Below are positions 7,956-28,722 of a DNA stretch of 32,000 nt, in pieces. The notes beneath the pieces are model-generated. The model made no database searches. It was not told the origin of the DNA and saw only the letters and a list, made by a program, of their open reading frames with translations. The translations under genes and the position numbers were made by a program. Position 1 is the first letter of the stretch. The number at the start of each line of letters is the position of its first letter. Source of the stretch: Alkanindiges illinoisensis DSM 15370 (lineage in GTDB: Bacteria; Pseudomonadota; Gammaproteobacteria; Pseudomonadales; Moraxellaceae); NCBI RefSeq assembly GCF_000619845.1, contig NZ_JHUX01000003.1, positions 310,064 to 342,063 on the forward strand, written 5' to 3'.

Positions 7956-7959
7956 CAAT

Positions 7960-12032: not shown

Positions 12033-12035
12033 TTT

Positions 12036-12647
12036 ATGGTTGCACTAGCGGCAAGTGGTGAGAGAAAGTTTGTGCGTTATAAGCAGCAGGACGTTGATGC
12101 GGTTTATATCAGGGGTAATAAAATATATGGGAAAAACCTGTGGCAGTTCCCAAATAGTGGAAGCGCTTCTAGTGCGGTATATGGGGAATGGGTAACGGAC
12201 TATTTGAGTGCTGATAATCAACATCAAATCCAGCGCTATGTAAAACGTGGTACTCAAAATATTCAGTCACTCAAGCAATGGACAGGGTTATCACCAATTA
12301 ATTTTGTAGACCTCAACAAATCATATTCATTTCAGTGCAAAGTCAAATCATCCCTACAATTTGTAAGGTTATTTGTTTATATCTATGGGCAGACAAATCC
12401 AGTTACGGCATTTAAAGTGGGTGTAAACAACACAACATTTACAGATGTACAGCTCGCGAGCCTAGTGCCAAATGGATCAGCCACTAATACCGCTTATCGA
12501 GGCGTGGTTTTTCTAGGGTGGTATACTAGCGACTTCAATAATATTACGGATACTGCGTACTTTGAAGGCCATACCATTGAAGTCAAGGAAATGAAATTAG
12601 AGGAGGGCGAGCTTAGCCCGTACTCCATTCATTCCAGCCTGCTTTAA
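12036..12647 (+). CDS. Fiber-associated protein (distal receptor-binding or assembly protein), AT-rich cassette
   Basis: Starts 3 nt after the fiber stop. The sequence is beta-sandwich-like and ends ...EVKEMKLEEGELSPYS, resembling lectin/CBM-like fiber tips. It is visibly more AT-rich than the fiber gene: sampled 60-nt lines give about 32% versus 50% GC. Confidence 0.45.
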   Translation: MVALAASGERKFVRYKQQDVDAVYIRGNKIYGKNLWQFPNSGSASSAVYGEWVTDYLSADNQHQIQRYVKRGTQNIQSLKQWTGLSPINFVDLNKSYSFQCKVKSSLQFVRLFVYIYGQTNPVTAFKVGVNNTTFTDVQLASLVPNGSATNTAYRGVVFLGWYTSDFNNITDTAYFEGHTIEVKEMKLEEGELSPYSIHSSLL

Positions 12648-12660
12648 TCAACTCACCACA

Positions 12661-12724
12661 TGAGCCGAATAAACCAAACATTCGGCTCACACCAAGCCCT
12701 GACTAACACTCAGGGCTTTTTTAT
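12661..12724 (+). terminator. Double hairpin / strong rho-independent terminator ending the tail operon
   Basis: Hairpin 1 pairs tgagccgaat (12661-12670) with attcggctca (12680-12689). Hairpin 2 pairs agccctga (12695-12702) with tcagggct (12710-12717) and is followed by tttttatt. Confidence 0.8.
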
Positions 12725-12743
12725 TGGCTGAAAGGGGAAACCG

Positions 12744-13259
12744 ATGCCAGATAGCAACTACTCAACAGAGCCACCCGCTGCGTCTGCCGCGGCATTAGCC
12801 GCAATCAGCGACAAGATTAGCGACATCCGTGAAGAGCAAAAAAAGCTTGCAGAAATACCGGGCATGTTGTCGAAGATGAATATGCAGTTGGAGCAACTCA
12901 CTAAAGACCACCAGCAAACCCGGCAGGATTTGCACGAAACCCGCAATGGATTTCAAACTGAGCTTGAGAAAATCCATAAAGATGTGGACGACCTGAAAAC
13001 CAGCAAAACCCGGATCGATACATTAAGCGACTGGTTTAAATGGGGTGGGCTGGCACTGATTGCCATGATCATTTCAGCATGGGTCAATCTATCAACCAAG
13101 ATGGACGCCACGGCTGCACAGGCTGCAAATAACTCCCAGCGCATTGAAGTAGTTGAGAAAACGCAGGAAGAACGCCGGGGCATTTTAAATGATCTATTAA
13201 AGCGGATTAATGACCTGCAACTTGATTTCTACAAACGGGGCATGAGTGATGAAAAGTGA
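12744..13259 (+). CDS. Bitopic membrane coiled-coil protein at the head of the lysis cassette (171 aa)
   Basis: An AGGGGA Shine-Dalgarno precedes the ATG. There is a single central TM segment (WGGLALIAMIISAWVNL), with charged heptad-rich segments on both sides. It overlaps the next ORF by 14 nt. Confidence 0.5.
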   Translation: MPDSNYSTEPPAASAAALAAISDKISDIREEQKKLAEIPGMLSKMNMQLEQLTKDHQQTRQDLHETRNGFQTELEKIHKDVDDLKTSKTRIDTLSDWFKWGGLALIAMIISAWVNLSTKMDATAAQAANNSQRIEVVEKTQEERRGILNDLLKRINDLQLDFYKRGMSDEK

Positions 13260-13527
13260 ACATACACGCGCATGGCTGGCACTGGTTGTCATTGCCTTGA
13301 TTGCCCTGCTGGTTGCGGGGCTTTTTTTTATCCAGATTCCAGCCGACAACAAGGACTTGGTGAACATTGCACTGGGCTTTATTGCGGGTTATGCAGCGTC
13401 AGTGGTTGGTTATTACTTCGGCGACAGTGATGCCAGCCGGCACAAAACCGAGTTGCTTAACAATCAGGATGTGGCCACAGGCAAGCCCGGTGATCCGGTG
13501 CATATTGAAAATGAGGATAAGCCATGA
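13246..13527 (+). CDS. Putative holin (two TM segments, charged C-terminus)
   Basis: 93 aa with TM1 WLALVVIALIALLVAGLFFI and TM2 IALGFIAGYAASVVGYYF, then an acidic/basic tail. ATGA overlap with the endolysin gene. Confidence 0.55.
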   Translation: MMKSEHTRAWLALVVIALIALLVAGLFFIQIPADNKDLVNIALGFIAGYAASVVGYYFGDSDASRHKTELLNNQDVATGKPGDPVHIENEDKP

Positions 13528-14108
13528 GCAAGGCAGTATTTGACCAACTCCGAACATTAAGCGGTGGTGCGTTATCACAAGAGCAAGTAGATGCCGGCAA
13601 CCGTATCTTAGGCTTTGCCAATGAATCAGTCGTGCTGCAATTTTTGGGGGCAAACAACGTGCAGAAAATGAAAATCAGTCAGTATGGCACTAACCTGATT
13701 AAGCAGTTTGAATCACTGCGCCTGTCAGCTTATGATGATGGTGTCGGGGTATGGACAATTGGATACGGCACTACCAAATACCCCAATGGCCTTAAAGTTA
13801 AGCGGGGCGACAAATGCACGCAGCAGCAAGCTGAGCAGTATTTGCAGCATGATCTGGCTGAATTTGTTGATGCAGTTAACGATGCACTGACCACTACTGT
13901 TAATCAGAACCAGTTTGATGCCATGGTAAGCCTTGCTTATAACATAGGTGTGACTGCATTTAAGAACAGTACGTTGGTTAAGAAAGTAAATACTGGCGAT
14001 AAGCTGGCCGCAGCTAACCAGTTTCTGCTTTGGAATAAGGCAGGCGGTAGGGTGCTGCAAGGACTTGTAAATCGACGCAGTAAAGAACGTGCATTGTTTT
14101 TGTCATAG
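13524..14108 (+). CDS. Endolysin, glycoside hydrolase family 24 (phage lysozyme)
   Basis: LIKQFESLRLSAYDDGVGVWTIGYGTT matches the GH24 catalytic-Glu region, E-x8-D-x5-T plus TIGYG. AYNIGVTAFKNSTL and LQGLVNRRSKERALF match the conserved C-terminal part. About 48 aa of N-terminal extension precede the catalytic domain. Confidence 0.9.
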   Translation: MSKAVFDQLRTLSGGALSQEQVDAGNRILGFANESVVLQFLGANNVQKMKISQYGTNLIKQFESLRLSAYDDGVGVWTIGYGTTKYPNGLKVKRGDKCTQQQAEQYLQHDLAEFVDAVNDALTTTVNQNQFDAMVSLAYNIGVTAFKNSTLVKKVNTGDKLAAANQFLLWNKAGGRVLQGLVNRRSKERALFLS

Positions 14109-14123
14109 CAGGCCGCAAAGATA

Positions 14124-14132
14124 TGCTATAAT
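14124..14132 (+). promoter_or_regulatory. Extended -10 promoter (TGcTATAAT)
   Basis: An exact TGnTATAAT lies 16 nt after the endolysin stop, reading into non-coding DNA that ends at a terminator. Confidence 0.4.
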
Positions 14133-14139
14133 CACTTCG

Positions 14140-14256
14140 CTTTCGGATTTCTTGATCCAGCCGCCTTGTGACTGCCTAGGTATCACTTGGAGATTATGTT
14201 TAAAGTGTTGCTGCACTCTAAACATATAAAGACCGTCCTTATGGGCGGTTTTTATT
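14140..14256 (+). ncRNA. Candidate prophage-encoded small RNA (or 26-codon micro-ORF transcript)
   Basis: About 110 nt lie between the extended -10 element and a hairpin. The hairpin pairs accgtcc (14232-14238) with gggcggt (14243-14249), followed by ttttatt. There is an internal imperfect hairpin, gtttaaagtg...cactctaaac. The only ORF is ATG 14196-14276, whose GGAG sits just 3 nt upstream. Confidence 0.3.
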
Positions 14257-14374
14257 GCCCATCACATGAAACCTGATATACTGTACTTCTTAGCTGCTTA
14301 CATTTCTGGTTCTCCAGTATGTGCCTGTCACGGCGGTTCGAGAATTTGCAAATGGTGTCCAGCCATTCGCTACC

Positions 14375-14422
14375 AAAAGGGCTTTTTATGTATGTCCAGT
14401 ACATAAATCTAAGCCCTTTTTT
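14375..14422. terminator. Bidirectional rho-independent terminator
   Basis: The outer stem pairs aaaagggctt (14375-14384) with aagccctttt (14411-14420). The inner stem pairs ttatgta with tacataa. An A-run on one side and a T-run on the other would let it terminate the minus-strand int operon. Confidence 0.65.
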
Positions 14423-14473
14423 AATGCCTATCAGTTATGCCTATTAGCACTGGAAAGCATTAGCTGAATTGCA

Positions 14474-14695
14474 TTATTGCCAAAACTTCCACCATTTCTT
14501 TTCCTTCCTCACAACAAACTCCACTGCATGACCCGGCTTGCCACAATCCGCACTCACACACTCACCCTTGTGATTGACCTGTATCACACCGCATCCCTCG
14601 CAGAGTTCCATGACAAGATAGCCTGGCTTGCATAGTCCAGCCATGCCATTTTGCATACGATGGTCTTTAGCACACTGTGCGCAGTATTCAGCCAT
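14474..14695 (-). CDS. Cys-rich small protein (putative zinc-ribbon), translationally coupled to the integrase
   Basis: 73 aa with CxxC (C5, C8), C22, CxxC (C32, C35), C46 and C51. Its ATG overlaps the integrase stop (ATGGCTGA, an 8-nt overlap). Confidence 0.6.
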   Translation of the reverse strand: MAEYCAQCAKDHRMQNGMAGLCKPGYLVMELCEGCGVIQVNHKGECVSADCGKPGHAVEFVVRKEKKWWKFWQ

Positions 14696-15920
14696 TGTCA
14701 GTTACCGATCCATCAAGCCAATCTGCCCACCACTGCATCATTCCGGCACGTTTGCTTAGATACTTAGCGTGATTATAAGATGCTCTGGTCTGATTGCTAC
14801 TCACGTGTGCTAGTTGGATTTCAATCCAGTCTTCATTAAATTCGATTTCATTTAGTGTCGTTGATGCAGTAGCTCTAAAGTCATGTGCCGTTACATCTGA
14901 TAGCTCGATATTCTGAAAAACCCGGTTAATTGTGGCGGGTGATAGCATTTTTTCAGGATTATAGGGGGAAGGGAATATATACTCTGTCATTCCGCTAATC
15001 TTGCGCTGGGCTTCAAGTATTTTTAATGCCTGCGTGGATAATGGGACGATATGCGTCCTATTCTTTTTCATCAACCGCTTACCATCTTTTAGCTGCTCAC
15101 GGCTCGCCATGGGAAGTGTTAATGTTTGATTCTCAAAGTCTACATGCTCCCAGCGTGCGCGCCTGATCTCAATAGTCCGCAGCATGGTATAGAATAGTAA
15201 ATTAACAGCATTCTTAACGGTTTGGGTGCCACCATAGGCAATGAGTTTATTCTTTAGTTCCCTGATTTCGGTTTTATCAAGTGGCCGGGCATGATTAATT
15301 GGCGGTTTCTCAACAATATCCCTGACTGCATAAGTCGGATCATTATCAGCGCGCAGGGTGGCAATGGCATAGCGCATTACGCCACCAATGATCTGCCTAT
15401 TGTTAATAGCTGTAGTTTCTCCTGTGCCATAATTCCTCTGACTTGTAACCCGCTTAATAGTATTCTTGATAATTACCAGCACATCGTGACTACTTACATC
15501 CCTTGCAATTTTATCCCCAATAGCCGGGTAAATGTCTTTATTAAGGCTGACAATAATACCGTCCCTATATCGCTTTGATTTGTGTTGCAACTTGGTGGCA
15601 ATCCATTCTTCAGCAATCACCTTAAACGTATTCTTTCCCTCGTTCTGTTTTTTTAGTTTTTCATCGCGCCGATGTTTAACTGGATTAATACCTTCAGCCA
15701 CCAGTTTACGCATTTCTGCATGTAGCTCCCTTGCCCTGGATAAACCAATTAAAGGGTACTCCCCTAGGCTCATTGATGATTCTTTCTCATCAAGCACAAA
15801 CTTGTAGCGCCACAGCTTTGAGCCATTAGGCTTTACTTCAATATAAAGCCTATCCGCATCCAGCAGGCGGTACATTTTATCCTTAGGCTTTAAGTTTCTA
15901 ATTTTGGCATCTGTCAGCAT
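14688..15920 (-). CDS. int: Tyrosine recombinase, P4-type integrase (DUF4102 N-terminal domain)
   Basis: The N-terminus MLTDAKIRNLKPKDKMYRLLDADRLYIEVKPNGSKLWRYKF...LGEYP...SLSRAR is the typical DUF4102/arm-binding domain. The C-terminal catalytic motifs are TMLRTIEIRRARW, HDFRATAST, LAHV and ...RASYNHAKY. Confidence 0.95.
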   Translation of the reverse strand: MLTDAKIRNLKPKDKMYRLLDADRLYIEVKPNGSKLWRYKFVLDEKESSMSLGEYPLIGLSRARELHAEMRKLVAEGINPVKHRRDEKLKKQNEGKNTFKVIAEEWIATKLQHKSKRYRDGIIVSLNKDIYPAIGDKIARDVSSHDVLVIIKNTIKRVTSQRNYGTGETTAINNRQIIGGVMRYAIATLRADNDPTYAVRDIVEKPPINHARPLDKTEIRELKNKLIAYGGTQTVKNAVNLLFYTMLRTIEIRRARWEHVDFENQTLTLPMASREQLKDGKRLMKKNRTHIVPLSTQALKILEAQRKISGMTEYIFPSPYNPEKMLSPATINRVFQNIELSDVTAHDFRATASTTLNEIEFNEDWIEIQLAHVSSNQTRASYNHAKYLSKRAGMMQWWADWLDGSVTDNG

Positions 15921-15921
15921 G

Positions 15922-15968
15922 GACGGGTATTTTTAATGAATAAAAAAGATACCCGTCATCGTACCCGT
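15922..15968. promoter_or_regulatory. Inverted repeat abutting the integrase start codon (possible int operator/5' structure)
   Basis: gacgggtat (15922-15930) pairs with atacccgtc (15949-15957) across an 18-nt AT-rich loop. A third tacccgt copy at 15962-15968 is followed by T7. The repeat begins 1 nt from the int ATG. Confidence 0.4.
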
Positions 15969-15985
15969 TTTTTTCGAGGAATCAA

Positions 15986-16072
15986 GCGGACTAATGCGGA
16001 ATTAAGCGGATAAAAGATAGAATTATGATTTTTGAAATAATAACTTAGCGGAATCAAACGGAATTATGCGGA
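15986..16072. repeat. Two triplets of helically phased W-GCGGA-W repeats (probable integrase arm-type/RDF binding sites)
   Basis: GCGGA lies at 15986, 15996 and 16006. GCGGA, ACGGA and GCGGA lie at 16048, 16058 and 16068. Spacing is exactly 10 bp within each triplet, and the flanks are AT-rich (aaGCGGAct, atGCGGAat, aaGCGGAta, ...). Confidence 0.5.
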
Positions 16073-16284
16073 TTACAATTATTCTTTTCGAGCATCAGAA
16101 GCATCGTATTTGCAACCTTATGAAAACGGGAAAGTTAATTCATTTAAAGAGGTCGGAATGCCTGTGGAGGAATCCATAAGTCAAGAGCAGTTAAACCCAG
16201 CCCTTGAGAAGCTTATCTTAACAGTTATGTCATTATGTTTAAATGTTTAAACCCAATAATGTCGCGCTATAGGCTCTAAGCGTA

Positions 16285-17062: not shown

Positions 17063-17078
17063 TGGTATGGCTTTTGCT
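17063..17078 (+). promoter_or_regulatory. Sigma-54 (-24/-12) promoter of glnA
   Basis: TGGTATGGCTTTTGCT compares with the consensus TGGCACG-N4-TTGCW. The GG (17064-65) and GC (17076-77) have the correct spacing. The element lies about 80 nt upstream of the glnA ATG. Confidence 0.6.
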
Positions 17079-17159
17079 AATATATCAGGTATTAAATTTG
17101 TAAGGCGCACCTACAGGGTGCAGTTACCCAATACTGGGAAATACTGGAGCAAAGTGAGC

Positions 17160-18569
17160 ATGGCAAATAAAGTCCTCAACTTAATTAAAGAGCACGAGGC
17201 CAAGTGGGTCGATTTTCGTTTTACAGACACGCGCGGTAAAGAACAACACGTTACTTTCCCTGCTGGCACTGTTGATGAAGATACCTTCGAAGATGGCAAA
17301 ATGTTTGATGGTTCTTCTATTGCTGGCTGGAAAGGCATTGAAGCATCTGACATGATTTTGCGTCCAGATCCTGAAACTGCTTTTATCGACCCGTTCTTTG
17401 AAGCAACAACTGTTGTGGTGACCTGTGACGTTATCGAGCCGACCACTGGCCAGGGTTATGACCGTGATCCACGTTCCATTGCACGCCGCGCTGAGGAATA
17501 TTTAAAGTCTACCGGTATTGGCGACACTGCATTCTTTGGTCCAGAACCAGAATTTTTTGTATTTGACGAAGTGAAATTCGACATTGACATGTCAGGTGCC
17601 CGTCATACCATTTATGCTGAAGAAGCTGCCTGGTCTACCAACAAGGACTACGAAGCTGGTAATACTGGCCACCGTCCTCGTGTTAAAGGCGGTTATTTCC
17701 CGGTTCCTCCAGTGGACAGCGCGCATGACCTGCGTGTTGCCATGTGTGATGCCATTGAAGCCATTCTGGGCGAAGGCAAAGTTGAAGTTCAACACCACGA
17801 AGTTGCTTCCTGCCAGTCTGAAATTGGTGTGAGCTTTAACACACTGGTACGTAAAGGTGATGAAGTTCAGGCAACCAAATATGCCATTTTGAACGTTGCC
17901 CACCAGTTTGGTAAAACAGCAACCTTCATGCCGAAACCAATCGTTGGTGATAATGGTTCAGGTATGCACGTTCACATGTCAATCAGCAAAGACGGCAAAA
18001 ACCTGTTTGCTGGTGATGAATATGCAGGCTTGTCTGAGCTAGCACTGTTCTTTATTGGTGGTGTGATCAAGCATGCCCGTTCCCTGAACGCGATTACCAA
18101 CCCGTCAACCAACTCTTACAAGCGTCTGGTTCCGCATTTTGAAGCCCCGATCATGCTGGCTTATTCTGCGAAAAACCGTTCTGCGTCTATCCGTATTCCT
18201 TATGTTTCCAGCCCGAAAGGCAAGCGTATTGAAGCACGTTTTCCGGATTCTACTGCCAACCCATACCTGTGCTTTGCTGCACTGCTGATGGCCGGTATCG
18301 ATGGTATCCAGAACAAGATTCATCCAGGCGAAGCTGCTGACAAAAACTTGTATGACTTGCCTCCTGAAGAAGAAGCCAAGATTCCTACAGTAGCCCATAG
18401 CCTGGAAATGGCGCTGGATGCACTGAAAGCGGATCATGACTATCTGACCAAAGGTGGTGTATTCACCAAGGAAATGCTGGACGCTTATGTTGAGCTGAAA
18501 ATGGAAGACGTACGTCGCCTGAACACCACAACTCACCCAGTTGAGTTTGAAATGTACTATAGCTGCTAA
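17160..18569 (+). CDS. glnA: Glutamine synthetase type I
   Basis: ATG 17160 gives [34 protein letters not shown]..., a 469-aa protein of typical GSI length. Signature regions are FDGSSIAGW, the ATP-binding [33 protein letters not shown], and the adenylylation-loop NLYDLPPEE. The track's 17067 start adds an implausible leader. Confidence 0.97.
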
Positions 18570-18880
18570 TTAAAATAGCAGTATTAAGGCGTCTCTTTAA
18601 ACTGGAGGGATGTCTTAATGTAAGCCCGGAAGCATTGGTATCATTGCTTTCGGGCTTTTTTATTATTTATACATTCGGATATGATTTAATAAAATTCAGC
18701 ACTATTTGTCCCCTGTTTTCCTTGTTTATCAATAAACAAAGGATATGAGGCTGTGAAATAGGGGACAGATAATACTTGAGTACTGGTATTACAGAGCAAT
18801 GGCTTTAACCGATGTGCAGCTTAGAAAATTAAAACCGACTGGCAACGAGTATCAGGTAGCTGATGGTCACGGTTTTATAA
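18554..18880 (+). repeat. Direct repeat copy A: glnA 3' end + terminator + integrase 5' fragment
   Basis: Aligns by eye with 22381-22710. Copy A reads gtactatagctgctaattaaaatagcagtattaaggcg... and copy B reads gtactatagctgc-aattaaaatagcagtattaaggcg.... Collinearity continues through the terminator, a tatttgtcc-containing segment, and ...ttaac(c/t)gatgtgcag(c/t)ttagaaaattaaaac. Confidence 0.85.
18622..18662 (+). terminator. glnA rho-independent terminator
   Basis: Stem aagcccggaagca (18622-18634) pairs with tgctttcgggctt (18645-18657), followed by a T-run. Confidence 0.8.
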
Positions 18881-18933
18881 GACTTTATTGTCATCAGACA
18901 ATGGTCAACAGTATGGCATTTCTGGCTGTATAG
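18799..18933 (+). pseudogene. P4-type integrase remnant A (about the first 26 codons recognisable)
   Basis: MALTDVQLRKLKPTGNEYQVADGHGF... matches the DUF4102 N-terminus (compare MLTDAKIRNLKP of the intact int). It then diverges and stops at TAG 18931-18933. Confidence 0.65.
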
Positions 18934-19208
18934 TGATTGAGCAGGAACCTAACTAGGCGTTGGCCAAGCGCTTGCAACAATGGTATACACTGCTGGCACT
19001 CAGCCGGGTCAGCGGGTATCTGGCAAGGACTGCGCTGCCATTTGCTACGGTTTATGGCTGGGGCAAGCAAAAGTTAAAGTTAATTTAGATGAGGATAATT
19101 TTTACATAAGTTTAGTATTGTTGCTTAGAGCAGGAATGATTGCGGTAAGACCATGACCAGATCATTATTTAAGGGTCATGGCCGTGGGACACTGATTACT
19201 CACTGATC

Positions 19209-20663
19209 TTAAGTCAATGAGTAGTCTTTAGGATTAAAACTGGATAGACGTGCGCGCATTTCAAAGGTTGTCCAAGGCCATAAGGTGCTATTTCTGCCAT
19301 TGGCGTCAATAAAGTAGCTGCTGCAACCACCTTTATTCCAGACCGTATCTTTTAAGGCATCTTGTACTTCATCATTGTAGCTGGCAACGATTTCAGGTTT
19401 GACTTCAAAAGTCTGAACATTCTTTTGTTTTAACTGTTTCAGTGCATCTAGGATATACGCAAGTTGTGCTTCGAGGATAATTAATGCCGAAGAACTGACC
19501 GCAATATTGGGACCAAACGTGATAAACGCATTGGGACAACCGGGAACAACGGTTCCCAAATATCCTACCGGGCTACCATTCCAGACTTCTTCCATGGTTT
19601 TGCCATGTTTATTACGAATTTGCTTGGCAACAGGCGGATTACTAATTTCAAACCCTGTACCAAAGATAATCACATCAACTTCATGTTCGCTGCCATCATC
19701 GGCAATTAATGTATTGCCTTTAATTTCCTGAACTCCACAACGGCGTACATCAACATTCGATTTGGTTAATGCGGGATACCAGTTATTCGATTGCAGAACC
19801 CGTTTACAACCAATGGTAAAGTTGGGGATTAATTTTTCCCTTAAAGCCTTGTCTTTAACCGCATGGTTAATATTCCACTTTGCCAGACTTTCAATCTGAC
19901 GAATCAGCTTAGGATGGTGCATACTGGAATTTAAAGATTCAAATACCCCATACACACTATAACGAGTTAAACGTTGGGTAATCGGTAAGAATTTAAACAG
20001 GAGCTGGGCTGCTTTGGGCAGGCTTTGATCCATTTTGGGCAAGACCCATTGCGGGGTGCGTTGAATCAAAGTCAGTTTTGCCACTTTAGGCTGAATTTCC
20101 GGGACAAACTGAATTGCAGACGCACCAGCACCAATCACGGCAACCCGTTTGCCGGTCAGGTCAATATCATGCCGCCAGTGGGTGGAATGGAAACTTGCCC
20201 CCTTAAAACTATCCATTCCAGGAATTTCAGGATAAACCGGCTCATGCATGGGGCCGCCTGCCATAATTACAAAGCGGGCAGAAAATTCACCCTGACTGGT
20301 AGAGATGTTCCAGCGTCTGGCCTGATTATCCCAAGCCGCTTCAATCATTTCATATTGAAAGCGCACATAAGGGATTACGCCAAACTGCTCAGCGGTACGT
20401 TGCAGGTAGTGCTTGATTTCCAGTTGTGGTGCAAATACGCGGCTCCACTTTGGATTGGGTGCAAAGGAATAGGAATATAACGCGGAAGGGACATCACAGG
20501 CGCAACCGGGATAGGTGTTGGCACGCCAGACACCACCAATTTCCGTGGCTTTTTCCAGAACAACAAAATCGGTAATACCAGCTTCTTTAAGTTTGATTGC
20601 TGCGCCAATCCCGGCAAAACCAGCACCAATAATGACTACTTCAAAGATTTGGGCTTGAGACAT
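19209..20663 (-). CDS. Flavin-dependent Baeyer-Villiger-type monooxygenase (EthA/AlmA-like)
   Basis: The N-terminal FAD-binding motif is VVIIGAGFAGIGAA. FKGASFHSTHWRHD fits the type I BVMO fingerprint FxGxxxHxxxW. The second Rossmann motif is VAVIGAGASAIQ. Length is 484 aa. Confidence 0.85.
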   Translation of the reverse strand: MSQAQIFEVVIIGAGFAGIGAAIKLKEAGITDFVVLEKATEIGGVWRANTYPGCACDVPSALYSYSFAPNPKWSRVFAPQLEIKHYLQRTAEQFGVIPYVRFQYEMIEAAWDNQARRWNISTSQGEFSARFVIMAGGPMHEPVYPEIPGMDSFKGASFHSTHWRHDIDLTGKRVAVIGAGASAIQFVPEIQPKVAKLTLIQRTPQWVLPKMDQSLPKAAQLLFKFLPITQRLTRYSVYGVFESLNSSMHHPKLIRQIESLAKWNINHAVKDKALREKLIPNFTIGCKRVLQSNNWYPALTKSNVDVRRCGVQEIKGNTLIADDGSEHEVDVIIFGTGFEISNPPVAKQIRNKHGKTMEEVWNGSPVGYLGTVVPGCPNAFITFGPNIAVSSSALIILEAQLAYILDALKQLKQKNVQTFEVKPEIVASYNDEVQDALKDTVWNKGGCSSYFIDANGRNSTLWPWTTFEMRARLSSFNPKDYSLT

Positions 20664-20675
20664 GTGGTGTCATCC

Positions 20676-21515
20676 TTATTTGGTTTGTGCCAGTTTGTTC
20701 AGGCGGTTTTCATAACTCTGGCGATCCTTACGGTTCAGACCTTTAAGGATGCGGTCATCACCTGCAATACGGCGAGCAGCAGTATTGAGCCACTGGGGTA
20801 CTAAACCATAAGCACGCGGGCTATGGGTCAGATAGTGCGGTACAGCAATTTCAGGCATGTTGTCACGGATTGCACGAATCACTGCCTGTGCAACATCCTC
20901 AGGATCAACCGTTGGAATAGGAAGATCTTCACCTGTACCAGAAGAAAGCTCGGTGCGTACTTTAGATGGCATCACCGTAGATATATTGATTGGGGTATCC
21001 CGTAATTCCTGTTGCATAGAAGCGGTTAAACCCACCACAGCAAATTTGGTAGCACAATAGACACTTGCACCAGGAATTGGATATTTACCTGCTAAAGACG
21101 CCACATTAACAATATGTCCTTTTTGACGCTGTAACATACCGCCCAAAACCGCTTTCATGCCATGAATCACACCGCGCAAATTAATATCAATCTGGGCATT
21201 GGTAATGGCTTCACTTTCCTCAAGGAAATGTCCCATCGGCATAATGCCGGCATTGTTAACCAGAATATCAACTGGCCCCAGATTGCTTTCAGTAGCTGTA
21301 ATAAAGTCATTGAATGACTGCTGCGAGCGGACATCGACATGGTAACCAAAGCCATTCACGCTTTTAGTGGCCTGTTCGGCAAGCTCGGTATCAATATCAC
21401 CAATCGCAACTTTTGCACCAAGCTGTGCAAAGGCTTTTGCCGTTGCCAAGCCAATGCCACGACCTGCGCCGGTAATGACAACAACCTGGTCTTTAAAGTT
21501 ATAACTGCGTTTCAT
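20676..21515 (-). CDS. Short-chain dehydrogenase/reductase (SDR)
   Basis: Motifs are TGAGRGIG (cofactor binding), NNAG and the catalytic YCATK (YxxxK). I prefer ATG 21515 (MKRSYNFKDQVVVITG), which has an AGGA Shine-Dalgarno, over the track start at 21566. There is a 12-nt gap to the BVMO start, so the two likely form an operon. Confidence 0.85.
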   Translation of the reverse strand: MKRSYNFKDQVVVITGAGRGIGLATAKAFAQLGAKVAIGDIDTELAEQATKSVNGFGYHVDVRSQQSFNDFITATESNLGPVDILVNNAGIMPMGHFLEESEAITNAQIDINLRGVIHGMKAVLGGMLQRQKGHIVNVASLAGKYPIPGASVYCATKFAVVGLTASMQQELRDTPINISTVMPSKVRTELSSGTGEDLPIPTVDPEDVAQAVIRAIRDNMPEIAVPHYLTHSPRAYGLVPQWLNTAARRIAGDDRILKGLNRKDRQSYENRLNKLAQTK

Positions 21516-21634
21516 GGCTTTTCCTGCATATTTTGCGTCAAATTTAATCTTGGAATAAATTGTCATTTTTGGAATTAAATGTCAAATTTTAATTTTAAGT
21601 CGTTTTTAATGGATACTTCTGATAAGATTTTTAC

Positions 21635-22273
21635 ATGAATGACAAAACCACAATTTCCCGGGCGGAACGCCAGCGAATTCAATTACAGGCAGAAATTATT
21701 GAAGCTGCATTTATTGAGTTTTCCGAGCGTGGCTATCACCAAACCGCAATTTCTGATATTGCCCAGCGTCTAGGCATTGGGCATGGCACGTTTTACCGTT
21801 ACTTTCAAAACAAGCGTGATATCCTGGACAAGGTGATTGCTGATACCTCAGTGAAGATCATGGATTTACTGGCCAATGAAAATGCACCCGGTGCAGTTGC
21901 ATCGGTAGAAGAATATCGTATACAGGCTGAACGGATTGCAGGAAAGTTTCTTGAATTTGCCAGAGAAAACCCGCGTATCATGCGTTTGATTCTATTGGAA
22001 GCTACCTCAATTGATCAGCAAATGACGGCACAAGTGAATAATCTGTTGCATATGGGCGGCTTATTTACCGCATCGTATTTGAAAGACGGGGTAACAAGAG
22101 GGTTTTTAAGGGCAGATCTGGATATTGAAATGACTGGGCATGCGATTGTCGGCTTTATTGTCGCAGGCGCATTACGCTTTCTGGCTGCACCTGACAATAC
22201 AGAAGCTATGAAAAGTTATAGTCAGGCTGCCATTCAAATGATGATGTTTGGGATTGCTTCTATAGATCAATAA
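21635..22273 (+). CDS. TetR/AcrR-family transcriptional regulator
   Basis: The N-terminal HTH reads AAFIEFSERGYHQTAISDIAQRLGIGHGTFYRYFQNKRDIL. It is divergent from the SDR-BVMO operon. Confidence 0.9.
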   Translation: MNDKTTISRAERQRIQLQAEIIEAAFIEFSERGYHQTAISDIAQRLGIGHGTFYRYFQNKRDILDKVIADTSVKIMDLLANENAPGAVASVEEYRIQAERIAGKFLEFARENPRIMRLILLEATSIDQQMTAQVNNLLHMGGLFTASYLKDGVTRGFLRADLDIEMTGHAIVGFIVAGALRFLAAPDNTEAMKSYSQAAIQMMMFGIASIDQ

Positions 22274-22380
22274 GTTTGACAAGGATTATAATTTAAAAAA
22301 ATTGACTAAATTAATAGTCCCCTATTTTGTCCCTTATTTGAATATTTTTTAAATTAAGTGTTTGTTTTTTAAGACATAGT

Positions 22381-22710
22381 GTACTATAGCTGCAATTAAA
22401 ATAGCAGTATTAAGGCGCCCCTTTAAACTGGAGGGGCGCCTTAATTTAAGCCCAGAAGCATTGGTATTATTGCTTCCGGGCTTTTTTATTGTCTTATGCT
22501 TTTCAATATAATTTAATCAAATCCAGCATTATTTGTCCTCTGGTTTACTCATTTATCAATAAGTAGAGGACAGGAGGCTATGAAATAGGGGAACAGATTA
22601 TACTTTAGCGCTTGTGTTATCGGATTGCAGAGTAGTGACTTTAACTGATGTGCAGTTTAGAAAATTAAAACTAACTGGCAATAAATATCAGGTGGCTAAT
22701 GTCACGATCT
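22381..22710 (+). repeat. Direct repeat copy B: orphan glnA 3' end + terminator + integrase 5' fragment
   Basis: Starts with gtactatagctgc, the last 13 nt of the glnA CDS, with no glnA body upstream. It is then collinear with copy A. Confidence 0.85.
22412..22488 (+). terminator. Duplicated (orphan) glnA terminator region: two hairpins
   Basis: A perfect 11-bp stem pairs aaggcgcccct (22412-22422) with aggggcgcctt (22432-22442). A second stem pairs aagcccagaagca (22448-22460) with tgcttccgggctt (22471-22483), followed by a T-run. In copy A the first hairpin has decayed. Confidence 0.7.
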
Positions 22711-22867
22711 AGTGATTATTGTCCGGGCTAAAGGAATGATGCACTGGCGATATAAATATAAAATAGATGGGAAAAAGAAAAAGTTATCTTTAGGTATATA
22801 TTCTGCAGTTATGGGCAACGATAAGCCGTTTCAGGTTGGATCTAGATTTTTAAGTGGCGAAAGTTAG
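22635..22867 (+). pseudogene. P4-type integrase remnant B (frameshifted, about 65 N-terminal codons recognisable)
   Basis: VTLTDVQFRKLKLTGNKYQVANVTI reaches a stop. In another frame, IIVRAKGMMHWRYKYKIDGKKKKLSLGIYSAV matches the DUF4102 pattern LxVxxxGxKxWxxRYxxxGKxKxLSLGxYP. No catalytic domain follows. Confidence 0.65.
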
Positions 22868-23163
22868 GCAATAAACGATTAGCTCAATTTGTCCTTCAGC
22901 TTAACCACTTAAGATTGGCTCAGCCTATAGCTCCAATAGGATTTAAATCCAAACGCTATAGTCTAGCGATCTGGCTACACCAAAGCGGGTGCCTATAATG
23001 ATATTTTCTAAGGATACAATGAAGTCATTTCACTTTTTATGTTTGAACCCCACAGAACCTATGAAAGTGAATTTTTCTCATGATTTTTCTAAAAAAGATC
23101 ATTTTTATTCATGTTGTGATTCAGGTATAAATCCTCTTATAGAAATGAGGGGACCAGATCATC

Positions 23164-24141
23164 ATGAGTCAAGAGTTTACATTTGCGATTAAGCGCATTC
23201 ATTTTGATGAAAACTATCATCCGGCAGACAATACACGTCTCACTACTAACTTTGCGAATTTGGCCAGAGGAGAACATCGCCAGGAGAACTTGCGCAAAGC
23301 TTTAAAGATGATTGACAATCGTTTCAATGCCTTGGCGCACTGGGATAATCCTCACGCAGATCGTTATTCGGTCGAACTTGAAATTATTTCGGTTGATATT
23401 GATATTGAAGGTAATGGCAAGACTTTCCCTACCATTGAAATATTAAAAACCAATATCATTGATCACAAGAACAACCAGCGCATTGAAGGTATTGTTGGCA
23501 ACAATTTCTCCTCATATGTGCGCGATTATGATTTCAGTGTATTACTGCCAGAACATAATAAGCATCAAGCTCAATTTAGCACCCCAGAAAACTACGGCGA
23601 ACTGCATGGCAAAATCTTTAAAGCATTTGTGAACTCAAATGTTTATCAAGATAACTTTGCTAAATCACCTGTGATTTGTCTGAGTGTTTCAAGTAGCAAG
23701 ACTTATCATCGTACTGAAAACCAGCATCCTGTCCTCGGTGTGGAATATCAGCAAGATTCCTATTCTTTAACCGATGAATATTTCGCAAAAATGGGCTTGC
23801 AGGTTCGCTATTTTATGCCGCCAAACAGTGTTGCTCCTTTGGCATTTTATCATCGTGGTGATTTGCTCATTGATTATACGGATCTTGAGCTGATCGGCAC
23901 CATCAGCACCATGGAAACCTTTCAAAAGATTTACCGGCCTGAGATTTACAATGCCAATTCTGCAGCAGGGAAATATTATCAACCCAGCTTGAAATATCAG
24001 GATTATTCATTAACCCAGATTGTTTATGACCGGGAAGAACGTAGCCAGTTGGCGGTTAAGCAGGGCAAATTTACTGAACAGCACTTCATCAAGCCTTACC
24101 AGAAAATTCTTGAGCAATGGGCTGCCAATTATGCTGTTTAA
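23164..24141 (+). CDS. mesX: DUF1852-family protein (MesX-like partner of the core methionine synthase)
   Basis: This 325-aa soluble protein sits directly upstream of a short MetE-like gene and a flavin reductase. I recall that gene triad as characteristic of DUF1852 proteins in Acinetobacter and Pseudomonas. Family assignment is from memory of sequence and context, not from an HMM. Confidence 0.7.
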   Translation: MSQEFTFAIKRIHFDENYHPADNTRLTTNFANLARGEHRQENLRKALKMIDNRFNALAHWDNPHADRYSVELEIISVDIDIEGNGKTFPTIEILKTNIIDHKNNQRIEGIVGNNFSSYVRDYDFSVLLPEHNKHQAQFSTPENYGELHGKIFKAFVNSNVYQDNFAKSPVICLSVSSSKTYHRTENQHPVLGVEYQQDSYSLTDEYFAKMGLQVRYFMPPNSVAPLAFYHRGDLLIDYTDLELIGTISTMETFQKIYRPEIYNANSAAGKYYQPSLKYQDYSLTQIVYDREERSQLAVKQGKFTEQHFIKPYQKILEQWAANYAV

Positions 24142-24183
24142 GCTCTGATACATTTTAATTTCAAATAGATAAGATAATTAGTT

Positions 24184-25215
24184 ATGAAACGATTATTACC
24201 GACGTCAACAGCTGGCAGTTTACCCAAACCTTCCTGGCTTGCAGAGCCTGAGAAACTTTGGTCGCTCTGGAAACTACAGGATAGCGAATTGATTGATGGC
24301 AAACAGGATGCGTTACGTTTGGCATTGCAGGAACAGCAACAGGCTGGCATCGATATTGTCAGTGATGGCGAACAGACGCGCCAGCATTTTGTCACCACAT
24401 TTATTGAACACCTTAACGGCGTTGATTTTGAAAAACGTGAGACCGTGAGAATCCGTAATCGCTATGATGCGAGTGTACCCACTGTGGTGGGTGCGGTATC
24501 GCGTCAACAGCCCGTGTTTGTGGATGATGCGCGGTTTTTACGCTCGCTTACCGATCAACCGATTAAATGGGCACTACCTGGCCCGATGACCATGATTGAT
24601 ACGCTGTATGATGCGCATTATAAAAGCCGTGAAAAACTCGCCTGGGAATTTGCCAAAATCCTCAATGAAGAAGCCAAAGAGTTAGAGGCTGCTGGTGTGG
24701 ACATTATCCAGTTTGATGAACCTGCATTTAATGTGTTTTTTGATGAGGTAAATGACTGGGGTGTTGCTACTTTAGAGCGGGCACTTGAAGGACTAAAATG
24801 TGAAACTGCCGTGCATATTTGCTATGGCTATGGCATCAAGGCCAATACAGAGTGGAAAAAAACGCTGGGTTCAGAATGGCGGCAATATGAAGAAGCATTT
24901 CCGAAATTGCAACAGTCAAAAATCGATATCATTTCACTGGAGTGTCATAACTCACGTGTTCCAATCGACCTGCTTGAACTCATCCGCGGTAAAAAAGTGA
25001 TGGTCGGTGCTATTGACGTGGCTACCAACAGCATTGAAACCCCAGAGGAAGTTGCCGATACCCTGCGTAAAGCCCTTCAATTTGTCGATGCCGACAAGCT
25101 CTATCCGTCGACCAACTGTGGTATGACGCCTTTATCCCGTCAAGTTGCAAGAGGCAAGCTTAATGCATTAAGTGCCGGTGCAGAAATCGTCCGCAAAGAA
25201 CTCTTGGGCAAGTGA
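24184..25215 (+). CDS. mesD: Core (single-barrel) MetE-like methionine synthase, MesD-like
   Basis: At 343 aa it is less than half of the 753-aa E. coli MetE. It keeps the C-terminal-barrel zinc and homocysteine motifs: VHICYGYG (His-x-Cys), SLECHNS (Glu) and STNCGMTP (Cys). The N-terminus is PTSTAGSLPKPSWL. There is no N-terminal folate-binding barrel. Confidence 0.8.
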   Translation: MKRLLPTSTAGSLPKPSWLAEPEKLWSLWKLQDSELIDGKQDALRLALQEQQQAGIDIVSDGEQTRQHFVTTFIEHLNGVDFEKRETVRIRNRYDASVPTVVGAVSRQQPVFVDDARFLRSLTDQPIKWALPGPMTMIDTLYDAHYKSREKLAWEFAKILNEEAKELEAAGVDIIQFDEPAFNVFFDEVNDWGVATLERALEGLKCETAVHICYGYGIKANTEWKKTLGSEWRQYEEAFPKLQQSKIDIISLECHNSRVPIDLLELIRGKKVMVGAIDVATNSIETPEEVADTLRKALQFVDADKLYPSTNCGMTPLSRQVARGKLNALSAGAEIVRKELLGK

Positions 25216-25296
25216 TTACTGAGAGAGTAGGGCAAAAGAGTTCCCGTTTAACTGTATTTCAGGATTAAACGGGTCAATGTCATGAGGAACAATGTG

Positions 25297-25839
25297 ATGA
25301 TTGAAGCAACAGACTTTAGACATGCCATGGCGTTGTTAAGCAGTGCGGTCAATGTCATTACCACAGCAGGGCTGTCTGGTCGTTATGGATTCACGGCATC
25401 TGCGGTGTGTGGTGTCTCTGATACACCCGCAAGCTTACTGGTCTGTATGAATAAAGCTTCCCGGTCACATGGGCATTTTATAGACAATAAAATTTTAACG
25501 GTGAATGTTTTAGGCGCGCAGCATCAGCATCTTTCCCATGCATTTTCATCCGGTATGAGTTCAGAAGAGCGCTTTAAACAAGGCGTTTGGACAGAACTGG
25601 AAACGGGCGCCCCCGTCTTGGCAGATGCTCTGGTGAGTTTTGACTGTGAGATTGAGCAGATTCAGGAAGTCGGAACCCATACTATTTTTATCTGTCGTAT
25701 TGTTGCGATTCAACACGGTCAACAAGAGCAAGGCCAGCAGGATCAGGGTCTGGTTTATTTTAATCGTGGCTATCATCAAATTGGTCATCATGTCGGGCCT
25801 CAAGTTGGCCATCAGGTGGGGCAGGCCGAAACTGCTTAA
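25297..25839 (+). CDS. NAD(P)H-flavin reductase (flavin reductase-like domain)
   Basis: MIEATDFRHAMALLSSAVNVITT...FTASAVCGVSDTPASLLVCMNK...FDCEIEQIQEVGTHTIFICRIV is typical of HpaC/RutF-like flavin reductases. ATG 25297 has a GAGGA 8 nt upstream; the track start at 25282 is the alternative. The C-terminal tail is unusual, Gln/His/Gly-rich: QQEQGQQDQG...HHVGPQVGHQVGQ. Confidence 0.8.
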   Translation: MIEATDFRHAMALLSSAVNVITTAGLSGRYGFTASAVCGVSDTPASLLVCMNKASRSHGHFIDNKILTVNVLGAQHQHLSHAFSSGMSSEERFKQGVWTELETGAPVLADALVSFDCEIEQIQEVGTHTIFICRIVAIQHGQQEQGQQDQGLVYFNRGYHQIGHHVGPQVGHQVGQAETA

Positions 25840-25881
25840 GCCTACTGGTTATTTCATTTAAAACTTTCAAGTCAGTATATC

Positions 25882-26682
25882 GTGGAATTAATCATTTTCT
25901 TTGCAATTGGTGCATTAGCGGGATTTGCCGCAGGACTGTTTGGTGTTGGTGGTGGAACGATTATCGTGCCCCTGTTGTATGTGGTCTTTACCCAAATGGG
26001 CTATGACCCTGAAGTGATCATGCATATGGCGCTAGGAACGTCGTTAGCGACCATTATCGTGACATCGATAAGTTCATTAATGGCACACCATAAAAATGGT
26101 GCAGTCATCTGGCCGGTATTTAAAAACCTGACACCAGGGATGGCTTTAGGATCTTTTTTAGGGGCAGGTATTGCAGGGCTGCTGTCTGGCGCACATTTGC
26201 AACTGATTATCGGTGTGTTCGTGATCTGGGTGGCTTACACCATGTTTGCTGGTGCAAAAAAGGTCATAGATCAGAACAAAGTACTGCCATCAACCCCTAA
26301 ACAAGTCGTTGCAGGGACGGGAATCGGTGTTGCATCAGCAATTTTTGGGATTGGCGGCGGGAGCTTAACTGTACCTTATCTCAATCATTATGGTGTGGTC
26401 ATGCAAAAGGCCGTTGGCACATCAGCCGCATGTGGTTTACCGATCGCGATTGCAGGTGCTTTGGGCTTTATGTTTTTTGGTATGAAAGACCAGATTAATG
26501 TGCCAAATACGATTGGCTTTGTACATATTTATGCATTCTTAGGGATTAGCATCATGAGTTTTTTTACCGCAAAACTCGGTGCAAAAACAGCTCATGCATT
26601 ATCACCAGCCGTACTTAAAAAATGCTTTGCTGTATTGTTATTGATCGTCGGCTGTTTTTTCATCTTTAAGGGATTACATTGA
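25882..26682 (+). CDS. TauE/SafE-family (DUF81) anion permease
   Basis: 266-aa polytopic membrane protein with two internal halves, each starting with a G(V/I)GGG(T/S) motif (GLFGVGGGTIIVP and AIFGIGGGSLTVP). Confidence 0.8.
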   Translation: MELIIFFAIGALAGFAAGLFGVGGGTIIVPLLYVVFTQMGYDPEVIMHMALGTSLATIIVTSISSLMAHHKNGAVIWPVFKNLTPGMALGSFLGAGIAGLLSGAHLQLIIGVFVIWVAYTMFAGAKKVIDQNKVLPSTPKQVVAGTGIGVASAIFGIGGGSLTVPYLNHYGVVMQKAVGTSAACGLPIAIAGALGFMFFGMKDQINVPNTIGFVHIYAFLGISIMSFFTAKLGAKTAHALSPAVLKKCFAVLLLIVGCFFIFKGLH

Positions 26683-26705
26683 GATAGAGTCAGTTCATTT
26701 TCTAT

Positions 26706-27136
26706 GGGTCTTAGGAAGTTAGAGGGGGCTATTACGGAGTATAATTTAAGCAAATCGAGGTATAAAGTACCATTCCGAGGATTGAAGCGATACTCTGTTT
26801 CTTTAAGATGCAAATAAAACATCTTTTTGTCAATTCCATTAAACTTAATGAGTCTCTTTTTAGCATAGTCCCAGAATGATTCTAACCCGTTAATATGACG
26901 CTCCCCATTGGCAAACTCATTATCTCTATGATGCTTGTCAAAGCCAATGTCGACCAGACCATCATAGCCTCTCCAGCCATCAGTTTTGCTATCTTACGCA
27001 GTAAAATCCATTGTAAAAAAGCGAACAATCTGCCTGAATTTTGCTTCTGTAATTCTTGAACGAGAATATTATCTATTTTTTGCTTTCATATAAGGAAGTT
27101 ACCATACTTTTTAATATGCTTAACTTCCTAAGACCC
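26706..27136 (-). mobile_element. Internally deleted IS1595-family insertion sequence (431 bp, non-autonomous)
   Basis: The terminal inverted repeats are perfect over 16 bp: gggtcttaggaagtta (26706-26721) and taacttcctaagaccc (27121-27136). On the minus strand an N-terminal fragment reads MKAKNR*YSRSRITEAKFRQIVRFFTMDFTA*. It joins a C-terminal fragment reading DGWRGYDGLVDIGFDKHHRDNEFANGERHINGLESFWDYAKKRLIKFNGIDKKMFYLHLKETEYRFNPRNGTLYLDLLKL. Both match ISXO2-like/IS1595 transposase patterns, and the DDE core is missing. Confidence 0.8.
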
Positions 27137-27235
27137 AATTTTAAATCACCATTGGCCTATTATGTCGTGTATCGGCCTGAATCAGCCAGTTTGCCGCGTT
27201 TTGGGGCTTTTAAGGACTGGCTCATTCTGAAGTGA
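27137..27235 (+). pseudogene. LysR-family regulator, C-terminal stub truncated at the IS boundary
   Basis: The frame reads NFKSPLAYYVVYRPESASLPRFGAFKDWLILK* starting exactly at the IS end. This is a typical GcvA-type LysR C-terminus. No 5' part lies on the other side of the IS. Confidence 0.5.
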
Positions 27236-27318
27236 ATCAGGTTAAATAAATAGCATTTTTTAAAGGTATGATGTTGATCTGCTTAACTGTTGTGATGATC
27301 AACTTCCCGGGTTAGCAG

Positions 27319-27768
27319 GTGATGTATTTGATGGCCGGGCCATTAATTATGGTAGCAACTTTTGTAGGTTTTATTGGCGCCTATACCCATGCACTATTTG
27401 GCCCGGAACTGCTGTTTGTGGGTGGCGCGCTGGCTGCAGTCATTGTCACCTGGTTTACGTTTTTGCCTTCTTTCCTGTTTATTCTGGCTGGTGGGCCACT
27501 GATTGAATCTACGCATAATGATATTAAATTTACTGCACTACTGACTGCCATTACGGCTGCTGTGGTTGGCGTCATTTTAAATCTGGCGCTATTGTTTGGT
27601 TATCACGTGTTTTGGCCAAAAGGATTTGCAGGGAGCTTTGACTGGATATCGGCTTTGATTGCTTTGGGTGCGGCAATAACGTTGTTCCATTACGAGCAAA
27701 ATGTGATTCAGGTGATTATTGCTTGTGCCCTGATCGGACTAGTCTTGAGTTATATCCAGCTACCATAA
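27319..27768 (+). CDS. Chromate-transporter (CHR) family membrane protein, probably a 5'-truncated remnant
   Basis: The segment AGPLIMVATFVGFIGAY...FLPSFLFILAGGP...VVGVILNLAL fits a CHR-family half-domain. The (P/A)GP motif sits at residues 7-9, whereas I recall it about 50 aa in for short CHR proteins. An in-frame TAG lies at 27313 just upstream. Confidence 0.5.
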   Translation: MMYLMAGPLIMVATFVGFIGAYTHALFGPELLFVGGALAAVIVTWFTFLPSFLFILAGGPLIESTHNDIKFTALLTAITAAVVGVILNLALLFGYHVFWPKGFAGSFDWISALIALGAAITLFHYEQNVIQVIIACALIGLVLSYIQLP

Positions 27769-28161
27769 TCAGATTTAATGGATGAGAGAACGCTTTATGG
27801 TCACTTGCTCATAAAGCCAGTGATTCGAAAAATCTCTGCTACTGGAGTTATAGTTATTTGAGCTATAGCCAAATTTTGCAGTCATATTCTCGAGCGCTTT
27901 ATATCTTAAAAAATATCCAGTTTGTCCATTTGGTTCCAATGATGCTGGTGTTTGGTTTTATACTGAAGGGCGCCAGCAGGGGAAAATACAGCCTGATAGC
28001 AGATAATGACTGAAAGGGTATTGACCATAATTTATTCATTTATCATTTAAAAGTAAGTGTTATCATCAAACGGGATATAGCAACGGCGCATTGCCAGCGT
28101 TACATTTAACAGCGTCAATATAAGTGTGTAAAGTCATAACAGTCTAAACGAGGAATACAGC

Positions 28162-28722
28162 ATGTTCAGGGAAAGCAAATTTTTAGCCTTAGCGCTTACA
28201 CTGGTCATGAGTGGCGTGGCGCAGGCTGCCATTTATAAGACAACCGATGCCAAAGGCAATGTGGTGTACACCGACTCACCATCCAGGGAAGCTAAAACTG
28301 TTGATTTGCCGCCGCTATCCATTGTACCGAGTTTAAGTGCCGAGCAAATTGCACAGGCAAATGCCACTAATCAAGCCGCTGCACAGCCTGCTGCCATTCG
28401 TTACCAGCTCAAGTTTGCACAACCTGCTGCTGAACAAACCGTACGCAAGCCTGATCCAATTGGTGTGACAGTTAATATCCAGCCTGCATTGGCCAATGGC
28501 GATAATATGTCAATTTTGCTGGATGGCATCGTGGTTGCCAATGGTAATGGTGTTACGATTTCTACTGAACAAATGGATCGGGGAGCACATAGCCTGGCCG
28601 CACGGGTAACCAATTCGGCAGGTAAGGTCGTTAGTGAAGTCAGCACCACCGTTTATGTGCAGCAAAATAGTGTCAATTCGCCTGCAAGTCAGGCAAACAG
28701 ACCAGCGCCAGCCAAACGATAG
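28162..28722 (+). CDS. Secreted DUF4124-domain protein
   Basis: The signal peptide is FLALALTLVMSGVAQA. It is followed by IYKTTDAKGNVVYTDSP, the characteristic DUF4124 start. Confidence 0.75.
   Translation: MFRESKFLALALTLVMSGVAQAAIYKTTDAKGNVVYTDSPSREAKTVDLPPLSIVPSLSAEQIAQANATNQAAAQPAAIRYQLKFAQPAAEQTVRKPDPIGVTVNIQPALANGDNMSILLDGIVVANGNGVTISTEQMDRGAHSLAARVTNSAGKVVSEVSTTVYVQQNSVNSPASQANRPAPAKR

Follow-up and report, generated by a model that had tools for sequence, protein, structure and literature searches.

In the 32,000-nt stretch of the Alkanindiges illinoisensis DSM 15370 genome analyzed here (contig NZ_JHUX01000003.1, positions 310,064 to 342,063; referred to below as the window), the glutamine synthetase gene glnA is followed by a region which very probably consists of two related islands, A and B, that integrated in tandem at the 3′ end of the gene and subsequently decayed. 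This reading builds on the architecture of the attachment (att) sites, an empty site in a related genome, intact relatives of the islands and the homology of their arms, all four of which are established by comparison of sequences, and from which we infer that the integrases catalyzed these insertions. The coordinates of all features are compiled in Table 1.

The region is marked by a long direct repeat. A repeat search together with MAFFT alignment placed copy A (18553 to ∼18880) and copy B (22380 to ∼22715) in collinear register, and blastn aligned the two (18553–18871 against 22379–22705) with 81.8% identity over 329 columns (E 1.4e-85; contig L001 in this comparison matches copy A of the window with 100% identity). 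Identity reaches 91% in the hairpins and 77–80% elsewhere, and each copy combines a pair of hairpins with a group of TGTCCCCTATTT-like motifs and the 5′-terminal part of a gene for a P4-type integrase. The left boundary is sharp: the repeat begins at TGTACTATAGCTGC, 14 nt upstream of the glnA stop codon TAA (18567–18569), and the sequence to the left of 22380 bears no resemblance to the body of glnA. A collinear duplication of the glnA 3′ end, its terminator and an integrase 5′ stub, with a second copy devoid of the glnA body, is what the original prediction had described from the letters alone, and the alignment bears it out; the similarity extends from the core into the integrase gene and is not confined to the terminator hairpin. 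The plasmid search returned no matches to the repeat.

Both copies are followed by a decayed integrase gene, as had been proposed, although the stubs are 27 and 59 codons long instead of ∼26 and ∼65. DNA homology of stub A to all relatives ends at 18875, which represents its deletion point, and the adjoining pseudogene fragments, which belong to an open reading frame (ORF) that is intact in the relative L096, mark the deletion junction of this stub as judged from their alignment. Stub B shares 72–75% identity with the intact integrase P0201 in tblastn, spread over two frames.

The attachment core itself was delimited outside the window, by the identity of attL and attR in an intact island of ∼21.7 kb on contig NODE_17, of which loci L090 and L095 are neighbouring parts (core at 9757–9773 and 9702–9718, respectively). 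This island is flanked by the 17-bp direct repeat TGTACTATRGCTGCTAA and carries genes for an integrase, a second recombinase, AlpA, YagK/YfjJ, DUF932, YqaJ and copper resistance; its right end, ∼300 bp ahead of the DUF4124 gene, contains CCCCCTATTTTGTCCCTCATTTG and, further on, GGATGG, TGTACTATGGCTGCTAA and GTTTTT in direct succession, and the native glnA terminator is situated beyond its attR. The 17-bp core corresponds to the last 14 coding nucleotides of glnA plus the stop codon, and on its left side it coincides exactly with the start of the repeat in the window. Here, island A has both direct repeats of the core, 17 nt at 18553 and 16 nt at 22380, the stop codon of the latter being short of one T (TGCAATTAA versus TGCTAATTAA), and no distal core was found for island B. 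The earlier suggestion that each element brought its own copy of the gene end next to its integrase gene is supported by the comparative data. A conventional segmental duplication spanning the glnA 3′ flank, arising without site-specific recombination, would account for a bare direct repeat only; given a repeat edge that matches the independently defined core to the base, integrase homologues behind both copies and, ahead of copy B, a right-end arm homologous to that of the intact island (see below), we regard it as extremely improbable.

The sequences flanking the cores are likewise related to those of other elements. Integrase-side arms (P′) homologous to that of island A are present in L082, L090, L092, L108, L111 and L112, and all relatives follow the same plan, in which the stop codon is succeeded by two hairpins (the second with a T-run), the motifs and the integrase gene, with one motif of the TGTCCCCTA type in forward and two in reverse orientation per arm. 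In island A, arm-type motifs are located at 18707–18718 (+) and 18756–18767 (−), and the nearest intact relative of the island B arm is found in L112. The degenerate form of the motif, G[TC]CC[CT][CT]T[ACG][TG]TT, occurs five times on both strands of the 32 kb, all within the two att regions; it is conserved across the arms of the relatives, and these sites would be bound by the arm domain of the integrase. When joined to the core as a pattern, the right-arm motif retrieved nothing in the Joint Genome Institute (JGI) metagenomes.

The related motif noted just before copy B is present there as two tandem copies, lying within a right-end arm (P). This arm is 77% identical (E 2e-19) to the one left of the attR core in L094/L095, with a mean MAFFT column identity of 84% when gap columns carry no penalty. 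Homology to the NODE_17 right arm and core spans positions 22275–22393 of the window, and past the core the two sequences diverge, with chromosomal DNA following in L094 and, in the window, an integrase-side arm with homology to copy A. From left to right, copy B therefore joins the island A right arm to the core and the core to the island B integrase-side arm, exactly the junction that two tandem integrations would produce.

The unoccupied counterpart of this site is seen in Alkanindiges sp. WGS2144 (L106, CP171007.1), the nearest named genome with an empty site, where trpG, a dksA-like gene and glnA are followed by 229 bp with one native terminator and then by DUF4124-ubiC-ubiA. The alignment between the window and L106 stops at 18568 and restarts at 28218, and the gap between glnA and DUF4124 amounts to ∼9.3 kb in the window as compared to 229 bp in L106. 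In ∼20 Acinetobacter species, ubiC-ubiA lies 170–760 bp after glnA (with one outlier at ∼1.7 kb), and in Psychrobacter and Fluviicoccus DUF4124 comes after glnA; the Acinetobacter loci likewise represent empty sites. Judged by these comparisons, positions 18570–27897 are an insertion, and the empty sites that the original prediction had called for in related genomes do exist. Occupancy is sporadic, and the cargo varies among the window, L090/L095, L093 and L107. We also observed that the window, L096 and L107, although close relatives, carry wholly different DNA between glnA and DUF4124 and share a common backbone restart, TATCTTAAAAAATATCC, at 27898, 9754 and 9833, respectively; no recognisable attR core was detected at this restart in any of the three. 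Exact-protein look-ups of the DUF4124 and UbiA proteins of the window gave no match and that of the glnA product one short contig only. There is no tRNA gene in the window.

A first search with the stubs yielded two truncated proteins only, both directly after glnA in other samples; intact integrases were recovered through an exhaustive HMMER search and then a profile search. These relatives are 410-aa integrases with the domains PF13356 (Arm-DNA-bind_3), PF22022 (Phage_int_M) and PF00589 (catalytic), and their first 64 residues are 86–100% identical to the stub protein P0001 and 64–78% identical to stub B. P0201 is encoded 228 bp after glnA on a 122-kb contig (L090), and P0206 234 bp after glnA in a pgk-fba-glnA background (L092, L093), within an island whose cargo includes a monooxygenase, a glyoxalase, a TetR regulator, an Old Yellow Enzyme (OYE) family protein and a hydrolase. 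In L112, the integrase-side arm of the element encoding P0197 closely resembles that of copy B, and this integrase gene, too, lies ∼230 bp after glnA. The N-termini of P0201, P0206 and P0197 are 76–100% identical to the stubs (76–93% for the two stubs of the window), and an equivalent layout was also encountered at two JGI metagenome loci (L108 and L111). Intact homologues of the stubs, for which the original prediction had proposed a search, adjoin glnA in several lineages, with differing cargo. Other decay states are represented as well. In L082–L085, the L090 island has undergone a deletion that fuses integrase codon 64 to the YqaJ-like gene lying 9.5 kb downstream, and this same derivative is carried by seven metagenome or read-archive contigs; one island lineage therefore occurs both intact and without its integrase. 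L089 retains 47 integrase codons, and L107, whose glnA is 90% identical to that of the window, has retained the hairpins only. The proposal that two related elements shared the glnA 3′ end as attB agrees with the empty site, the intact relatives and the right-arm homology alike.

On this basis, we suggest a model in which two related site-specific integrative islands sit in tandem at the glnA 3′ end. The family uses a 410-aa P4-type tyrosine integrase together with the 17-bp core, which is carried by the element, such that glnA is rebuilt upon integration, and the integrase-side arm exchanges the native glnA terminator for the element's own hairpin pair, with the TGTCCCCTATTT motifs and the integrase gene next to it. 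The layout in the window reads glnA, core, island A (stub, monooxygenase, dehydrogenase, TetR, right arm), hybrid core, island B (stub, mesX-mesD-flavin reductase-TauE, insertion sequence remnant, gene debris) and DUF4124-ubiC-ubiA. Internal deletions have cut the integrases to 27 and 59 codons, and the distal attR has been lost. Re-use of attL, re-use of attR and integration of a cointegrate all lead to the same final structure, so that the order of arrival cannot be inferred. The original prediction had further proposed that decay of both integrases fixed the cargo; the decay is evident, but island A still lies between two att sites and is not necessarily fixed.

Several observations weigh against this reading. 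No third core was detected, although the original prediction had suggested looking for one, beyond ∼27 kb or outside the window, as the far end of the second island: a downstream search allowing at most three mismatches returned copy A alone. Nor was a right arm of island B detected, local alignments of core and arm against 26690–28165 scoring within shuffled controls, and in the absence of a distal core or arm the distal limit of island B rests only on the backbone restart. No relative was found with island A alone or island B alone, and excision or a circular form is not demonstrable from sequence. Finally, among the integrase-side arms sampled, those of A and B resemble each other most (79% identity versus 71% to L090), a pattern that would equally arise from a duplication in place long ago or from gene conversion.

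A single integration followed by in-place duplication, for instance through attL × attR recombination between sister chromosomes or through integration of a dimer, with later divergence and cargo change, would indeed yield the same succession of attL, internal P-core-P′ and attR as any tandem array of one element, and it would fit both the 79% versus 71% arm identities and an 11-nt insertion common to hairpin 1 of the two copies. However, the copies are 18–21% apart and have no cargo gene in common; their divergence exceeds the 10% divergence between the glnA genes of the window and L107, yet the L107 arm is of the L090 and not of the A/B type; and the intact L112 element with its copy B-like arm indicates that the variants circulate independently, which together make a duplication in place very unlikely. 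The array may also have arrived en bloc, either as an attP × attP cointegrate or through homologous replacement of the glnA-ubiC interval from a donor already in possession of the array, leaving the same end structure as stepwise accretion. Moraxellaceae are naturally transformable, and the interval between glnA and DUF4124 differs wholly between the window, L096 and L107 despite their common breakpoint at 27898. Nothing specific speaks against en bloc arrival, a variant of the proposed tandem integration that differs only in the place of accretion; we consider it unlikely. The integration of two related islands at glnA remains the reading that we favour.

As indicated above, the integrase-side arms begin with a pair of hairpins. 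In copy A, hairpin 1 is located at 18582–18620 and hairpin 2 with its T-run at 18622–18663; the corresponding segment of copy B (22410–22489) holds hairpin 1 at ∼22410–22444 and hairpin 2 at 22448–22483, again with a T-run. The claim that hairpin 1 is degraded in copy A proved wrong, as the RNA forms a full 18-bp stem by means of G-U wobbles and one compensatory pair. Folding of both hairpins of copy A jointly gave −42.7 kcal/mol (z = −8.1), 6 of the 15 hairpin pairs have compensatory changes across seven elements, and the G-U pairs hold only in the glnA-sense strand. The conserved two-hairpin segment stands in for the single native terminator of glnA in every element of the island family, as seen in both copies of the window and in the integrase-side arms of L090, L092, L107, L108 and L111, and is retained even by islands without any integrase gene. 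The window contains no known RNA family of Rfam, and a simple terminator scan overlooked both hairpins, whose loops or stems are beyond its limits.

In functional terms, hairpin 2 with its T-run would be an intrinsic terminator, and the hairpins would end transcription coming from glnA and keep it out of the integrase gene. A more far-reaching interpretation, which we deem unlikely, is that the segment is more than a terminator, namely a conserved module of the 3′ untranslated region (3′UTR) that couples the element to the nitrogen-regulated transcription of glnA. It could then be a 3′UTR-derived small RNA, as GlnZ is in enterobacteria, or it could be a leaky insulator, with read-through from glnA setting integrase expression and excision. 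If true, such a module would account for the hairpins being retained in every decayed island; a plain double terminator explains the hairpin conservation equally well.

Regarding the cargo, the gene order of the mesX-mesD module in island B matches that of Acinetobacter baylyi ACIAD3524-3522, an oxygen-dependent, folate-independent methionine synthase cluster (PMC7857596). The module at 23.2–26.7 kb had been put forward as possible cargo of the older island; it is cargo of island B, and 'older' is not decidable. Downstream of it, the 433-bp IS1595-like miniature element is an internally deleted, ISAcra1-related element flanked by the near-duplicates ATTTTCTA and ATTTTAAA. In the gene debris that follows, the 3′ fragment ending at 27235 probably belongs to a regulator, of LysR type by eye only from its 35-residue translation, and the ChrA-family half gene matches Pfam Chromate_transp at profile positions 50–166 only. 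The backbone restarts ∼65 nt past the position of the glnA stop codon in the empty site, so that the core and the native terminator are missing from the distal junction. Two candidates for the distal end were discarded, namely a core-like TGAGCTATAGCC at 27859, which was not significant, and a match at 26736 considered as right arm of island B, which falls inside the IS1595-like miniature element.

Table 1. Features of the glnA region of the window, in order of position (all coordinates are those of the window)
Feature	Position	Strand	Evidence and remarks
glnA (glutamine synthetase)	17160–18569	+	Pfam Gln-synt_N and Gln-synt_C, full length; 469 aa
attL core of island A, TGTACTATAGCTGCTAA	18553–18569	+	attL/attR identity in NODE_17 island; left edge of repeat
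Integrase-side arm (P′) of island A	18570–18798	+	folding, motif scans, homologous arms
Integrase stub A	18799–18879	+	27 codons, P4-type; tblastn with intact P0201: 93% over aa 1–27
Pseudogene fragments (aa 375–425 and 513–536 of a 545-aa ORF)	18867–19085	+	tblastn, blastn
Flavin monooxygenase, island A cargo	19209–20663	−	Pfam
Short-chain dehydrogenase, island A cargo	20676–21566	−	Pfam
TetR regulator, island A cargo	21635–22273	+	Pfam
Right-end arm (P) of island A	22275–22379	+	two tandem arm-type motifs at 22316–22339
Internal hybrid core, TGTACTATAGCTGC-AA	22380–22395	+	attR of island A = attL of island B
Integrase-side arm (P′) of island B	22396–22634	+	motifs 22535 (+), 22561–22572 (−), 22583–22594 (−)
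Integrase stub B	22635–22810	+	59 codons, GTG start, one frameshift near codon 23, cut after codon 59
mesX (DUF1852), mesD-like core methionine synthase, flavin reductase, TauE-family exporter; island B cargo	23164–26682	+	Pfam
IS1595-like miniature element, 433 bp	26705–27137		perfect 17-nt terminal inverted repeats TGGGTCTTAGGAAGTTA
Gene debris	27131–27768	+	probable regulator 3′ fragment to 27235; ChrA-family C-terminal half 27319–27768
Eroded distal junction of island B	27769–27897		no recognisable core; backbone in common with L096, L107 and L106 restarts at 27898

The ATG chosen as glnA start (Table 1) fits the 469-aa gene calls in L082, L090 and L106. The longest glnA ORF starts at 17067, 31 codons upstream of the start in the relatives, and would encode 500 aa; the 17067–17159 extension is probably untranslated.

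Upstream of glnA, in positions 1–16104 of the window, a prophage is inserted in the 5′ end of trpG, with a lysozyme gene at 13524–14108 and an intact P4-type integrase gene at 14688–15920 (−). The first 14 nt of trpG (reverse complement ATGCTTCTGATGCT) have been displaced and lie at 16091–16104, adjoining the native upstream region, and the order past the prophage is a dksA/traR-like gene and then glnA; trpG, the dksA-like gene and glnA are uninterrupted in L106, L090 and L082. The GCGGAAT-type repeats at 15986–16066 may be arm sites. The prophage integrase is the only intact one in the window, and was rejected as a partner of the stubs, being part of the trpG prophage and 27% identical to P0201. 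In Acinetobacter L003 and L009, a 51%-identical integrase is encoded ∼1 kb upstream of glnA. With the prophage in trpG and the islands at glnA, two different integration sites flank glnA.

Compared to known systems, the islands are of the standard P4-integrase type, with a protein gene as target instead of a tRNA gene. Like the P4/CP4-57-type tRNA islands, the glnA family has an integrase with the domains PF13356, PF22022 and PF00589, an integrase gene which adjoins attL and points away from the target, and elements that bring along the 3′ end of the target such that it is restored; the intact L090 island also has an AlpA-type gene in common with them. In contrast to them, the glnA family targets the last 14 coding nucleotides and stop codon of a protein gene, and supplies replacement terminators. 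Accretion at protein genes is known for ICESt1/ICESt3 and integrase-less cis-mobilizable elements (CIME) at the 3′ end of fda in Streptococcus thermophilus and for the SXT/R391 arrays at prfC. These arrays share with the glnA array an internal att site between tandem elements, att-bounded remnants without integrase and a housekeeping protein gene as target, but differ from it in integrase family, host and target; in the glnA array, both members lack an integrase and the outer attR is gone.

The 3′ end of glnA is also reported as a target in Bacillus, where SPbeta-like prophages integrate and leave the gene intact, a degenerate remnant next to glnA being described in B. subtilis 168 (bioRxiv 10.1101/2021.11.22.469490). 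These prophages are large, encode an unrelated tyrosine recombinase of the ICEBs1-like kind and produce a 106-bp duplication (bioRxiv 10.1101/2021.11.22.469490), whereas the islands described here have a 17-bp core, a P4-type integrase and no phage genes according to Pfam, and reside in Gram-negative Moraxellaceae. The notion of glnA as an unusual integration hotspot is qualified by the Bacillus precedent. In the library searched, we found no glnA att site described for Gram-negatives, although the TIGER/Islander catalogue (PMC12424338) may already list such islands.

Overall, the general understanding of genomic islands is unchanged by these results, which represent a clear but ordinary case of a known route of foreign-gene collection. 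They are useful for island annotation, as automated tools would miss both islands, which have neither an integrase nor an outer attR, and the glnA core could serve as a site-specific integration tool in Alkanindiges-like Moraxellaceae. For the P4-type integrase clade of these bacteria, they fix a 17-bp attB within an essential, highly conserved gene and provide a full series of states, from the empty site and the intact 21.7-kb island to the integrase-deleted island and the tandem decayed islands. Moreover, they explain how the monooxygenase/dehydrogenase/TetR set and the mesX-mesD methionine synthase module ended up beside glnA.

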